From assembly GCA_000146045.2 (NCBI GenBank), contig BK006939.2:192001-256000 (forward strand): a stretch of DNA of 64,000 bases. Direction: 5' to 3'. The position numbers and the translations under genes were made by a program. Positions 34,858 to 39,987 of the stretch are shown in pieces. The notes under the pieces are model-generated. The model had not been told where the DNA came from, did no database searches, and worked only from the letters and a program-made list of their open reading frames with translations. The DNA comes from TPA_inf: Saccharomyces (Eukaryota). Position 1 is the first letter of the stretch, and each line of letters opens with the position of its first letter.

Positions 34858-36252
34858 TTACCTGATTTTAGAAAACAAATTTAATATTCCCTTCAGGATA
34901 GAAATTTCAACATCATTTGTCGTTTCATTAGAAATATCCAAAATACAATCTTTGAAATATTCTGTTACTTGACATTTGGGACCAAAAGGAATAAATTTCG
35001 AGCCATACATCGTTAAAATAAAATATAGTAGATTTTTATAGTTTTTACAATCAAAAAATTCGTTAAACTCTTTGATTATATTTTGCTGTATAGTTTCAGT
35101 CCGACCTTGCTTTTCACTAAAGCGTCTCCTGAGCAAGGCGCTTTGTAAATGAGGGAAGATTTGTAGTAGCCTATAATGTAAAAAAAAGTCGTTCTTGTCC
35201 ACAATTTCGAAATATGAATTTATGAAATGTGCCTCATTAAATAATTCCAGGACCTTAAAACACAGTCTATGGTCCGATTCCATAGCGTTAAAAACCTTTC
35301 TATCCAAGATTAAACATATGAAGGCTTTCAGAAAGAATTCTCTAACATCATCATTATCATCATCACTATAAAAATACATTAGGAATTTGAGCATTTTGTT
35401 AACGGGGAAAATTGTGCATAAATTATCATATCTAGAATTTTCCTTTTTCTCGTAGTTGATTTTTAACGAGTTACACTTTTCTTGATTGACGCCAAATAAG
35501 ACCAGTAAATTCGTGATGCTTGGGCATTTCAAGTGAACAAATTCAGGAACTTTTCCTTGCGATCTACTACTACCAAACAGGAATGAATACGCCGTATCTT
35601 TCATTTCCAAATCCATCAATTGCTCGTAATGGCAGTTTTTAGAGATGAAATGCCAATCTTTATATTTATCTGATATGGTTTCCTTGGTAACCACATCCAA
35701 ATAAATTTCTGGGATAGACCCAGAAAACTTTATGCTTTTTTGTAACTCACTTTTGGCTACAGTGTTACTAGTAATAACTATGCTTTTGTTGCTTCTAGGT
35801 GAATCCAATATTTCTTTTTTCAAGTCTTGTAGCTTGGCCACTGTAGTAGTGATCGTATCGTCGAAGCTATCACCTAGATTGAAAATTTTTAAAGGTACGT
35901 AATTGACTAATTTTCTGGGTGTCTTGACAATCTCCTCATCCTCGTTATTACTTGGTGCCTTTCTTTTGGAAATGATGGTTCTTTTTAAGATTGGATCAAA
36001 ATCGTCTCCAGACTCCGCCTTGGCACCAGAAAGATTCAAATCGCTGTTCTCTAGGCTAGAAAACTCTTCGTCGCTATTCAAACTGTCGTTCTCAGGATCA
36101 CTAATAAAGTTGGGATGCACCTTCTCATCGTCATCGTCATCGCGAAAGTAACTTCCCACACTAGTCGGTATCAAAGGAGAATCAAACCCTGAAATTTGTG
36201 AATCTGGCACAGTTTCAAACTCTTCATTCGGTGATGAGTTCACGCTTCCCAT
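34858..36252 (-). CDS. KRE29: Smc5-Smc6 complex subunit (Nse6), 464 aa
   Basis: The track ORF starts at GTG 36261. The first ATG, 36252, gives 464 aa. Position matches YER038C. Confidence 0.85.
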   Translation of the reverse strand: MGSVNSSPNEEFETVPDSQISGFDSPLIPTSVGSYFRDDDDDEKVHPNFISDPENDSLNSDEEFSSLENSDLNLSGAKAESGDDFDPILKRTIISKRKAPSNNEDEEIVKTPRKLVNYVPLKIFNLGDSFDDTITTTVAKLQDLKKEILDSPRSNKSIVITSNTVAKSELQKSIKFSGSIPEIYLDVVTKETISDKYKDWHFISKNCHYEQLMDLEMKDTAYSFLFGSSRSQGKVPEFVHLKCPSITNLLVLFGVNQEKCNSLKINYEKKENSRYDNLCTIFPVNKMLKFLMYFYSDDDNDDVREFFLKAFICLILDRKVFNAMESDHRLCFKVLELFNEAHFINSYFEIVDKNDFFLHYRLLQIFPHLQSALLRRRFSEKQGRTETIQQNIIKEFNEFFDCKNYKNLLYFILTMYGSKFIPFGPKCQVTEYFKDCILDISNETTNDVEISILKGILNLFSKIR

Positions 36253-36450
36253 TTGTGACACTGCCCTTTTGTGCGTCTAACAAAATTTTATCACTTTATT
36301 GCTATTTACTTGAAAAATTATATATGAATATATTTCATAAAACGATGCTGACATAATATGTAACATAAAAAAAGGAATAACCTAAAACAAATACAAAGAA
36401 GACCCCATATAAATGAATATAAATGTATATTTTGCTTGAGCAAATGAAGA

Positions 36451-36831
36451 ATGTACTACTTCTCAAGAGTAGCTGCTAGAACTTTTTGCTGTTGTATCTT
36501 TTTCTGTTTAGCCACAGCGTACAGCAGGCCAGACAGAAATCCTAGAAAGATAGAAAAGAAGGACAAAAAGTTTTTTGGAGCGTCAAAGAACACCAATCCC
36601 GCCAACGCTATGGGCAATTTGTTCAAAGCACCAACCATAGAATACGTTGTAGAGGAAGTTACACGAACACACCAGCCGGAACAGTACGATATCCCCACGG
36701 ACATGAGCCCACTGATGACCATTGCTGCCAGTGAGTCGGCGGACAAGTTCACAGACAAATTCTTTGTGGACCAATCTTCCATAATGAAGGAAAAGACTAG
36801 CAGCAAAGGCAATGCCAGAACGTTGTTATAA
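36451..36831 (+). CDS. FMP49: Dubious ORF antisense to HVG1 (FMP49/YER038W-A position), 126 aa
   Basis: 126-aa ORF lying entirely inside the HVG1 coding sequence on the opposite strand. Likely non-coding. Confidence 0.2.
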
Positions 36832-37205
36832 AACATAGTATCATAGTCTTTAAAGTTAGTCAGCCGAATTCTCTTCCGCATAATCAAAACGAACAATGCA
36901 GACGAAATACAATTGGTGAACATCCAGAGGTACCCCGGATTCAACACAAAGATGGTTGACTCAACAAGTTCCTGATCGAGATCCTCCAAAGATGATGCTT
37001 TGATTGCAATGGCCTGCTGATCGCCCCAGGTGGCCACTACAGATGAAAGGACCATCATAATAAATGACGTCAACTCCATAGAAGTGACTTTTCCGCCAAA
37101 GAAGAGGACCTCGCCATAAGCAATGAGAATGATCGTCAGATTCTTGAAAATTGTGTAGATGGGCACGGCAAGGTATTGTAAGCTCTTTGACGACGTATAA
37201 ATCAT
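36456..37205 (-). CDS. HVG1: HVG1 C-terminal fragment as usually annotated (249 aa from first ATG)
   Basis: The track ORF starts at TTG 37259. The first ATG (37205) gives 249 aa, [12 protein letters not shown].... Confidence 0.7.
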
Positions 37206-37262
37206 CAATACGAGCAGCAAAGAAATTGGAAACCAGTTTTTTACATCTGTCCTGTTCAAAGA

Positions 37263-37481
37263 TCAAAAATTAGCAACGCCTACAATTCGTAGGATACATA
37301 GCGTCACAGTGCACACCAGTGATTGTACAAACAACATCACAAAGTTCATGTTAAAGTTGTCCAGGTTAACCACGAATTTGTTCGTTACTGTCATCAAAAT
37401 CGAGGACGCGCAGTAAGATAAGATTGAAGCCGGCCCAGAGTTGGCCACTGATTCCGTCCATTCATGCTTATGCTTGCTCAT
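37263..37481 (-). CDS. YER039C-A, N-terminal fragment of the split VRG4 paralog (72 aa)
   Basis: ATG at 37481..37479 ([17 protein letters not shown]...) ending at TGA 37263..37265. Homologous to the Vrg4 N-terminus. Confidence 0.6.
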
Positions 37482-37794
37482 AATTACCACACCTTCTTGA
37501 TCTCTTTACAGCTTTTCAACCTTCCATTCTTGTACTCTATCTCTACCTGGCCCTTTAAACATTCTTAATATGATATATTCACATTTTTTGCTCTATTACC
37601 CGGCGGACAGGTTCCCGAAAGAAAGTGACATGGCAATGCTGAGAGAGTGGAAAGAGTCATCTTGCAAGACAGAGAAAGATGTTCAAGAGTGGTAAGCTAA
37701 TGTCAGCGCAGTAGCCCATCCCACAATAACAGAGTGTGTAAGAAAGAGAGACGAGAGAGAGCACAGGGCCCCCTTTTCCCCCACCAACAAACAA

Positions 37795-39987
37795 ATGCAA
37801 GACGACCCCGAAAATTCGAAGCTGTACGACCTGCTGAATAGTCATCTGGACGTGCATGGTCGAAGTAATGAAGAGCCGAGACAAACTGGTGACAGTAGGA
37901 GCCAGAGTAGTGGCAACACCGGTGAAAACGAGGAGGATATAGCATTTGCCAGTGGATTAAACGGCGGCACATTCGACTCAATGCTGGAGGCACTGCCCGA
38001 TGATTTATATTTTACGGACTTCGTGTCTCCTTTTACAGCAGCTGCCACGACCAGCGTGACTACTAAGACGGTCAAGGACACCACACCAGCTACCAATCAT
38101 ATGGATGATGATATTGCGATGTTTGATTCACTTGCCACAACTCAGCCCATCGACATAGCCGCATCCAACCAACAAAATGGTGAAATTGCACAACTTTGGG
38201 ACTTTAACGTGGACCAATTCAACATGACGCCCAGCAACTCGAGCGGTTCAGCTACTATTAGTGCTCCTAACAGCTTTACTTCCGACATACCGCAATACAA
38301 CCACGGTTCCCTCGGCAACAGCGTCTCCAAATCCTCACTGTTCCCGTATAATTCCAGCACGTCCAACAGCAACATCAACCAGCCATCTATCAATAACAAC
38401 TCAAATACTAATGCGCAGTCCCACCATTCCTTCAACATCTACAAACTACAAAACAACAACTCATCTTCATCCGCTATGAACATTACCAATAATAATAATA
38501 GCAACAATAGTAATATCCAGCATCCTTTTCTGAAGAAGAGCGATTCGATAGGATTATCTTCATCCAACACAACAAATTCTGTAAGAAAAAACTCACTTAT
38601 CAAGCCAATGTCGTCCACGTCCCTGGCCAATTTCAAAAGAGCTGCCTCAGTATCTTCCAGTATATCCAATATGGAACCATCAGGACAAAATAAAAAACCT
38701 CTGATACAATGTTTCAATTGTAAAACTTTCAAGACACCGCTTTGGAGGAGAAGCCCAGAGGGGAATACTCTTTGCAATGCCTGCGGTCTTTTCCAGAAAT
38801 TACATGGTACCATGAGGCCATTATCCTTAAAATCGGACGTTATCAAAAAGAGGATTTCAAAGAAGAGAGCCAAACAAACGGACCCAAACATTGCACAAAA
38901 TACTCCAAGTGCACCTGCAACTGCCTCAACTTCAGTAACCACTACAAATGCTAAACCCATACGATCGAGGAAAAAATCACTACAACAAAACTCTTTATCT
39001 AGAGTGATACCTGAAGAAATCATTAGAGACAACATCGGTAATACTAATAATATCCTTAATGTAAATAGGGGAGGCTATAACTTCAACTCAGTCCCCTCCC
39101 CGGTCCTCATGAACAGCCAATCGTATAATAGTAGTAACGCAAATTTTAATGGAGCAAGCAATGCAAATTTGAATTCTAATAACTTAATGCGTCACAATTC
39201 GAACACTGTTACTCCTAATTTTAGAAGGTCTTCAAGACGAAGTAGTACTTCATCGAACACCTCAAGTTCCAGTAAATCTTCATCCAGATCTGTTGTTCCG
39301 ATATTACCAAAACCTTCACCTAATAGCGCTAATTCACAGCAGTTCAACATGAACATGAACCTAATGAACACAACAAATAATGTAAGTGCAGGAAATAGTG
39401 TCGCATCCTCACCAAGAATTATATCGTCCGCAAACTTTAACTCAAATAGTCCTCTACAGCAGAATCTATTATCAAATTCTTTCCAACGTCAAGGAATGAA
39501 TATACCAAGAAGAAAGATGTCGCGCAATGCATCGTACTCCTCATCGTTTATGGCTGCGTCTTTGCAACAACTGCACGAACAGCAACAAGTGGACGTGAAT
39601 TCCAACACAAACACGAATTCGAATAGACAGAATTGGAATTCAAGCAATAGCGTTTCAACAAATTCAAGATCATCAAATTTTGTCTCTCAAAAGCCAAATT
39701 TTGATATTTTTAATACTCCTGTAGATTCACCGAGTGTCTCAAGACCTTCTTCAAGAAAATCACATACCTCATTGTTATCACAACAATTGCAGAACTCGGA
39801 GTCGAATTCGTTTATCTCAAATCACAAATTTAACAATAGATTATCAAGTGACTCTACTTCACCTATAAAATATGAAGCAGATGTGAGTGCAGGCGGAAAG
39901 ATCAGTGAGGATAATTCCACAAAAGGATCTTCTAAAGAAAGTTCAGCAATTGCTGACGAATTGGATTGGTTAAAATTTGGTATATGA
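37795..39987 (+). CDS. GLN3: GATA-type zinc-finger transcription activator of nitrogen catabolite-repressed genes, 730 aa
   Basis: GATA finger [28 protein letters not shown]. Asn/Ser-rich. 730 aa. Confidence 0.95.

Follow-up and report, generated by a model that had tools for sequence, protein, structure and literature searches.

A probable recent nonsense mutation at codon 73 splits HVG1, a VRG4 paralog that appears to have been lost repeatedly within Saccharomyces cerevisiae

Introduction

In a 64,000-nucleotide stretch of Saccharomyces DNA (contig BK006939.2, positions 192,001 to 256,000; hereafter the window, numbered from its first letter), two minus-strand open reading frames, YER039C-A and YER039C, follow each other in one frame with a TGA codon between them. 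The locus raises the question of whether these are two genes, one gene translated through its stop, or one gene broken by a mutation. A preliminary description offered two answers, a strain-specific nonsense allele or a candidate for programmed readthrough.

The UniProt entry for the reference Hvg1 warns that the S288C gene is split by a stop at position 73 and that it is contiguous in other strains. The split is already known, and the locus is catalogued as a disabled ORF (PMC1657058, citing Harrison et al. 2002 and Namy et al. 2003). The 2001 re-annotation paper (Wood et al. 2001, PMC2447204) mentions both YER039C-A and YER039C. The present analysis adds which codon was ancestral, in what order the mutations arose on the reference haplotype, how strong past constraint was, and a set of independent nonsense alleles. 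The window very probably holds an S288C-like HVG1 allele with a recent C-to-T change, R73*, in a young polymorphic pseudogene that has been repeatedly lost in S. cerevisiae.

Results

Translation of 36456..37508 on the minus strand gave a single frame from an ATG at 37481..37479 to a TAG at 36458..36456. The frame opens past a TAA at 37508..37506, and this ATG is the first in it. The whole HVG1 reading frame (36456..37481, minus strand) has 341 codons and the terminal TAG. Its sole interruption is codon 73, the TGA at 37265..37263 (GCT AAT TTT TGA TCT TTG AAC), and there is no frameshift; the coordinates, the same-frame arrangement, and the product of about 340 residues described earlier were thus seen to be right in the translated frame. 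The upstream piece, YER039C-A (codons 1–72, 37266..37481, minus strand), holds the N-terminus and the first two predicted membrane helices and matched exactly NP_010957.1, 'hypothetical protein YER039C-A', of S288C. The downstream in-frame piece (codons 74–341, 36459..37262, minus strand) holds the remainder of the transporter, including the FYNN and GALNK motifs. Within it, the annotated ORF of the reference strain, YER039C/HVG1 (36456..37205, minus strand), starts at Met93 and encodes 249 aa plus the stop; its product was an exact match to the S288C protein Hvg1p, 'Probable GDP-mannose transporter 2' (P0135).

The lengths of 75 and 267 aa given in the preliminary description were reproduced by the list of open reading frames, but they depend on a GTG start at 37490 and a TTG start at 37259, just 3' of the stop. 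Both are bacterial-type starts, and the ATG-based pieces are 72 aa and 249 aa long. The protein P0123 of the S. cerevisiae x S. kudriavzevii hybrid VIN7 begins three codons upstream (MVIM…), which corresponds to the GTG at window position 37490 (37482..37490); a non-ATG start is unlikely in yeast. P0123 is named 'Vrg4p', yet it is the HVG1 ortholog. HVG1 is flanked in the window by a GLN3-like GATA factor gene (37795..39987, plus strand) and the KRE29/Nse5 gene (34858..36261, minus strand).

With Arg placed at the stop, the merged product of 341 aa was 79% identical to Vrg4; the earlier assignment to HVG1 as a VRG4 paralog was correct. The merged product matched the sequence of the Vrg4 crystal structure 5oge over residues 7–332 (E = 2e-167; structures 5oge, 5ogk, and 6qsk), and the Pfam EamA domain scored above its cut-off. 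The Vrg4-family motifs FYNN (residues 217–220, 36822..36833) and GALNK (residues 284–288, 36618..36632) were both found in the downstream piece on the minus strand. In Vrg4, FYNN serves guanine recognition in TM7 and GALNK serves sugar and phosphate recognition in TM9 (PMC6789118). Tyr23 (37413..37415, minus strand) and Ser27 (37401..37403, minus strand) were found in the 72-aa piece and correspond to Vrg4 Tyr28 and Ser32 of TM1, of which Y28 is essential for transport and S32 contacts the ligand (PMC6789118).

Nucleotide sugar transporters consist of ten helices in two inverted five-helix repeats (PMC6789118). An uninterrupted ten-helix polypeptide is encoded in other strains and species and is absent from the window, where the frame ends at codon 73. 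TM1 and TM2 fall in one piece and TM3 to TM10 in the other, so neither fragment alone is expected to form the ten-helix transporter, and the window allele is probably a loss-of-function allele. The loop after the fifth hydrophobic segment (HVG1 residues ~160–176, window ~36954..37004) was markedly acidic in all Saccharomyces HVG1 orthologs; its counterpart in Vrg4 is ASLAEGAAGAVAS.

A large protein collection was searched with the merged sequence, and representative DNA was then fetched and codon 73 read. Full-length 341-aa matches came from numerous S. cerevisiae strains (99% identical) and the S. cerevisiae subgenome of S. pastorianus, along with S. paradoxus, S. kudriavzevii, and S. uvarum. 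Position 73 is Arg in every one of them, and likewise in Vrg4 and in orthologs further removed. Codon 73 was CGA in 17 of the 21 other S. cerevisiae loci examined (L001-L004, L011-L015, L018, L019, and L021-L026), CGG in S. paradoxus, S. arboricola, and S. uvarum, and CGC in S. kudriavzevii. Intact 341-codon ORFs, collinear with the window frame and free of indels, were found in other S. cerevisiae, S. paradoxus, S. kudriavzevii, S. arboricola, and S. uvarum. Their neighbours on either side are the GLN3-like GATA gene and the KRE29/Nse5 gene in S. cerevisiae strains, S. paradoxus, S. arboricola, and S. uvarum; for S. kudriavzevii, whose contigs are short, the Nse5 gene alone is visible, on L008. 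Since codon 73 encodes Arg across relatives at the same locus, the TGA (37263..37265, minus strand) is a derived C>T transition from CGA at 37265, that is, R73*. The nonsense-allele half of the preliminary description was therefore upheld, and CGA, one of the sense codons that it had suggested, proved to be the ancestral codon.

Selection on the two pieces bears on whether YER039C-A (72 aa) and YER039C (249 aa) could be two genuine genes, separately expressed and each functional, the longer product being made from an internal transcript or by reinitiation at Met93. The annotation of the reference genome treats them as separate ORFs, and Hvg1 appears in a transporter screen as one of the candidates for glycerophosphocholine transport (PMC11045925), which suggests that an overexpressed 249-aa construct may not be inert. 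Pairwise dN/dS (Nei-Gojobori) was 0.04–0.08 across species pairs and 0.056 between the window and S. paradoxus, and it was alike for codons 1–72 and 74–341. HVG1 was thus kept as one unit under purifying selection for nearly all the time since the species split. This uniformity, with one uninterrupted ORF in every other species and many strains, argues strongly against two genes. Met93 lies within a hydrophobic stretch that aligns to the third membrane helix of Vrg4, and the 249-aa piece has neither TM1 nor the essential Tyr. Some strains also carry stops inside the 249-aa piece (W152*, L180*, and W186*). Two genuine genes are therefore highly improbable; the preliminary description would have favoured them had all strains shared the stop with both pieces conserved, and instead the ORF is undivided elsewhere with a dN/dS of ~0.05.

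Two database patterns at this locus were considered and set aside. The 249-aa product is recorded on 401 contigs, and it was rejected as a proxy for the stop allele because assemblies with an intact ORF also annotate 249 aa. In S. arboricola H-6, the 249-aa 'Hvg1p' starting at Met93 is the only annotation on an intact 341-codon ORF with Arg73 (L010:1225-2250). The same holds for four S. cerevisiae assemblies with the intact ORF at 772-1797: GCA_000976965.3 (L018), GCA_000977325.2 (L022), GCA_000975645.3 (L024), and GCA_000975825.2 (L025). It seems that genomes lacking the stop were given the truncated gene model of the reference, so the number of 249-aa records exaggerates how common the stop allele is. 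P0153 and P0155, from ENA metagenome assemblies, show Trp at codon 73. A TGG revertant was considered and rejected, because P0155 also reads a second, out-of-frame TGA (window 36961..36963) as Trp; both proteins come from yeast contigs on which gene calling used a TGA = Trp code.

The identical neighbouring Kre29 protein was used to retrieve ten more loci, which form a sample that was not selected on HVG1. Eight of them had CGA and two (L020 and L027) had TGA. The closest intact alleles (L018, L021, L022, and L024) differed from the window at 2 of 1026 positions, namely the stop and a synonymous change in codon 121 (37119, minus strand), which is GCT in the window and GCC in 21/21 other S. cerevisiae loci examined. 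Because L020 and L027 carry TGA and keep GCC, the order was from the intact haplotype to R73* and then to the reference-type haplotype. Judged by these haplotypes, R73* is a very young derived allele. The mutation segregates in S. cerevisiae: four other assemblies have the TGA and seventeen loci lack it.

All four combinations of R73/R73* (codon 73, 37263..37265) and W152/W152* (codon 152, 37026..37028) were found: R73* alone in the window, both stops in L016/L017, W152* alone in the 151-aa products P0163/P0164, and neither in many strains. These combinations point to recombination within 237 bp or to recurrence of one of the mutations.

Another possible explanation was programmed or exploited readthrough, in which a near-cognate tRNA decodes the TGA and yields regulated, low-level full-length Hvg1, possibly raised in [PSI+] cells as proposed for disabled ORFs generally. 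The stop context is UUU-UGA-UCU-UUG, with U at +4. The preliminary description had correctly given TCT as the next codon, but it had also called the context TGA-A, which is inconsistent with TCT and wrong. Nor would TGA-A be leaky, as was claimed there, since A is among the two least permissive +4 bases in the yeast tables (PMC8087045). In that study, the genome-wide ranking for yeast was UGA > UAG > UAA for the stop codon (Table 2), C > U > A > G at +4 (C > U > G > A in earlier literature), A > G > C > U at −1, and A > G > U > C at +5. Against this table, the UGA of HVG1 is permissive and its +4 U second-best, whereas −1 (U) and +5 (C) each hold the base ranked last, and −3 and −2 are poor as well. 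The +4 to +9 sequence UCUUUG also departs from the most permissive pattern, with C at +4 and A at +5 and +9 (PMC8087045).

A stimulatory structure was looked for downstream, and the 100 nt 3' of the stop folded no better than shuffled sequences (z = −0.03). The supplementary files of PMC8087045, searched for per-gene readthrough values, do not mention the locus, and nothing on the HVG1 stop was found in PMC2876123, PMC6404609, PMC4935801, or PMC11045925. The downstream frame is open and nearly unchanged in the window, as readthrough would predict, but this is explained by the youth of the mutation. Four sister species and most of the other S. cerevisiae loci examined lack the stop, whose haplotype is two bases away from intact alleles, so there was neither the time nor the lineage for a readthrough signal to be selected. 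L016 and L017 carry the second stop W152* besides R73*.

The YER039C-A/YER039C transcript figures, as a disabled ORF, in the list of RNAs sensitive to nonsense-mediated decay (NMD) given by Guan et al. 2006 (PMC1657058). In that work, the stop was tested as the trigger in two other disabled ORFs, in one of which it was not the NMD trigger. NMD sensitivity of the HVG1 transcript fits ordinary termination at a premature stop and also speaks against readthrough. Programmed readthrough, as suggested in the preliminary description, is therefore very hard to reconcile with this locus and has little probability; background-level readthrough alone is expected. As UGA is the leakiest stop codon and U ranks second at +4, some full-length protein may be made, probably well below a few percent.

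A sequencing or assembly error at 37263..37265, for which there is nothing beyond the general possibility, has a negligible probability, because independently assembled genomes from different projects share this TGA (L016, L017, L020 as GCA_947370495.1, and L027 as GCA_000977415.2), 388 contigs carry a call for exactly the 72-aa product, and the phased diploid AIS has intact and split copies. In AIS, the collapsed assembly has a 341-aa HVG1, and haplotype 2 has a 72-aa (with H6R) and 249-aa pair (P0133, P0145, and P0151). This isolate appears to be heterozygous for the stop, with both alleles coexisting in it.

Further nonsense alleles came from loci that were fetched via truncated database proteins. 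These were W8* (TGG>TGA, L015), S11* (TCA>TGA, L014), L180* (TTG>TAG, L011/L012, strain Y55), W186* together with G130E (TGG>TAG, L013), and W152* together with R73* (TGG>TAG, L016/L017). The 179-aa product of L180* is also recorded for CEN.PK113-7D. Protein records suggest K211*, a frameshift near codon 108, and W152* in the absence of R73*; several more alleles were seen on short contigs alone. The missense changes S98L, G130E, and F312S fell at positions that are invariant in a 12-sequence alignment.

A McDonald-Kreitman-type comparison gave 13:8 nonsynonymous to synonymous polymorphisms versus 18:86 fixed differences to S. paradoxus (p = 7e-5), a polymorphism count that is inflated because the survey is a non-random population sample with several loci found via truncated products; for the same reason, allele frequencies cannot be stated. 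In the set not selected on HVG1, the counts were 4:4 versus 19:92 (p = 0.044), an excess of nonsynonymous polymorphism that is also expected from ordinary slightly deleterious variants. The presence of at least six distinct nonsense alleles in a 1-kb gene is a clear sign that HVG1 is dispensable in S. cerevisiae, and the gene has apparently been lost repeatedly within this species.

Discussion

The results suggested that one recent C-to-T transition turned Arg73 CGA into TGA in HVG1. Ribosomes starting at the ATG at 37481 reach the stop after 72 codons and would release a two-helix fragment, and the mRNA would be partly degraded by nonsense-mediated decay. The downstream 268 codons hold the nucleotide and sugar recognition motifs, without helix 1 and its essential Tyr and ligand-contact Ser. 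R73* segregates beside intact alleles and several independent nonsense alleles, in a gene that was under strong purifying selection genus-wide and is now likely dispensable in S. cerevisiae.

YER039C-A and YER039C are accordingly the two parts of a single gene that is broken in the reference lineage. What is learned about 'Hvg1' function from S288C-derived strains or from the 249-aa ORF would be uninformative on the intact protein. A puzzle is posed by a paralog with a dN/dS of ~0.05 genus-wide and yet many independent stops in S. cerevisiae. A functional intact protein is plausible because the motifs are conserved and dN/dS is low; that the intact CGA allele encodes a second working Golgi GDP-mannose transporter is nevertheless a rather unlikely proposition. 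If it did, the essentiality of VRG4 and sensitivity to Vrg4-directed antifungals which are taken as constant traits of the species, would be peculiarities of strains that lost HVG1, and the independent nonsense alleles would reflect selection for loss, or release from selection, in certain S. cerevisiae lineages rather than the neutral decay of a useless copy. A related question is whether an intact HVG1 allele buffers the loss of VRG4.

A close known system is Vrg4 (YGL225W), the Golgi GDP-mannose/GMP antiporter of the SLC35/NST family, which at 337 aa is in the same length class as the 341-aa HVG1 product. The two share Arg at the stop position, FYNN, GALNK, and the Tyr and Ser of TM1. Unlike VRG4, HVG1 adjoins GLN3 and KRE29 and is interrupted at codon 73 in the window. 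Its loop after residue 160 is ~four residues longer and more acidic than that of Vrg4, and its C-terminal tail is different. The longer acidic loop and the consistently different tail may be paralog-specific features of HVG1.

Genuine yeast readthrough genes reportedly include the BSC genes, PDE2, and IMP3, found in the screen of Namy et al. 2003. HVG1 resembles them in having two in-frame ORFs with a single stop between, which was the criterion of that screen. It differs in lacking a conserved stop, C at +4, A-rich flanks, and a downstream structure.

The disabled ORFs of S288C with NMD-sensitive transcripts, such as YIL168W/YIL167W (SDL1), YOL163W/YOL162W, and YIL164C/YIL165C (PMC1657058), offer a further comparison. 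An intact ortholog at the same position, a real and segregating disabling mutation, and signs of relaxed constraint were all found for HVG1. Nothing essential differs between the HVG1 locus and these disabled ORFs, and the locus is a member of their class.
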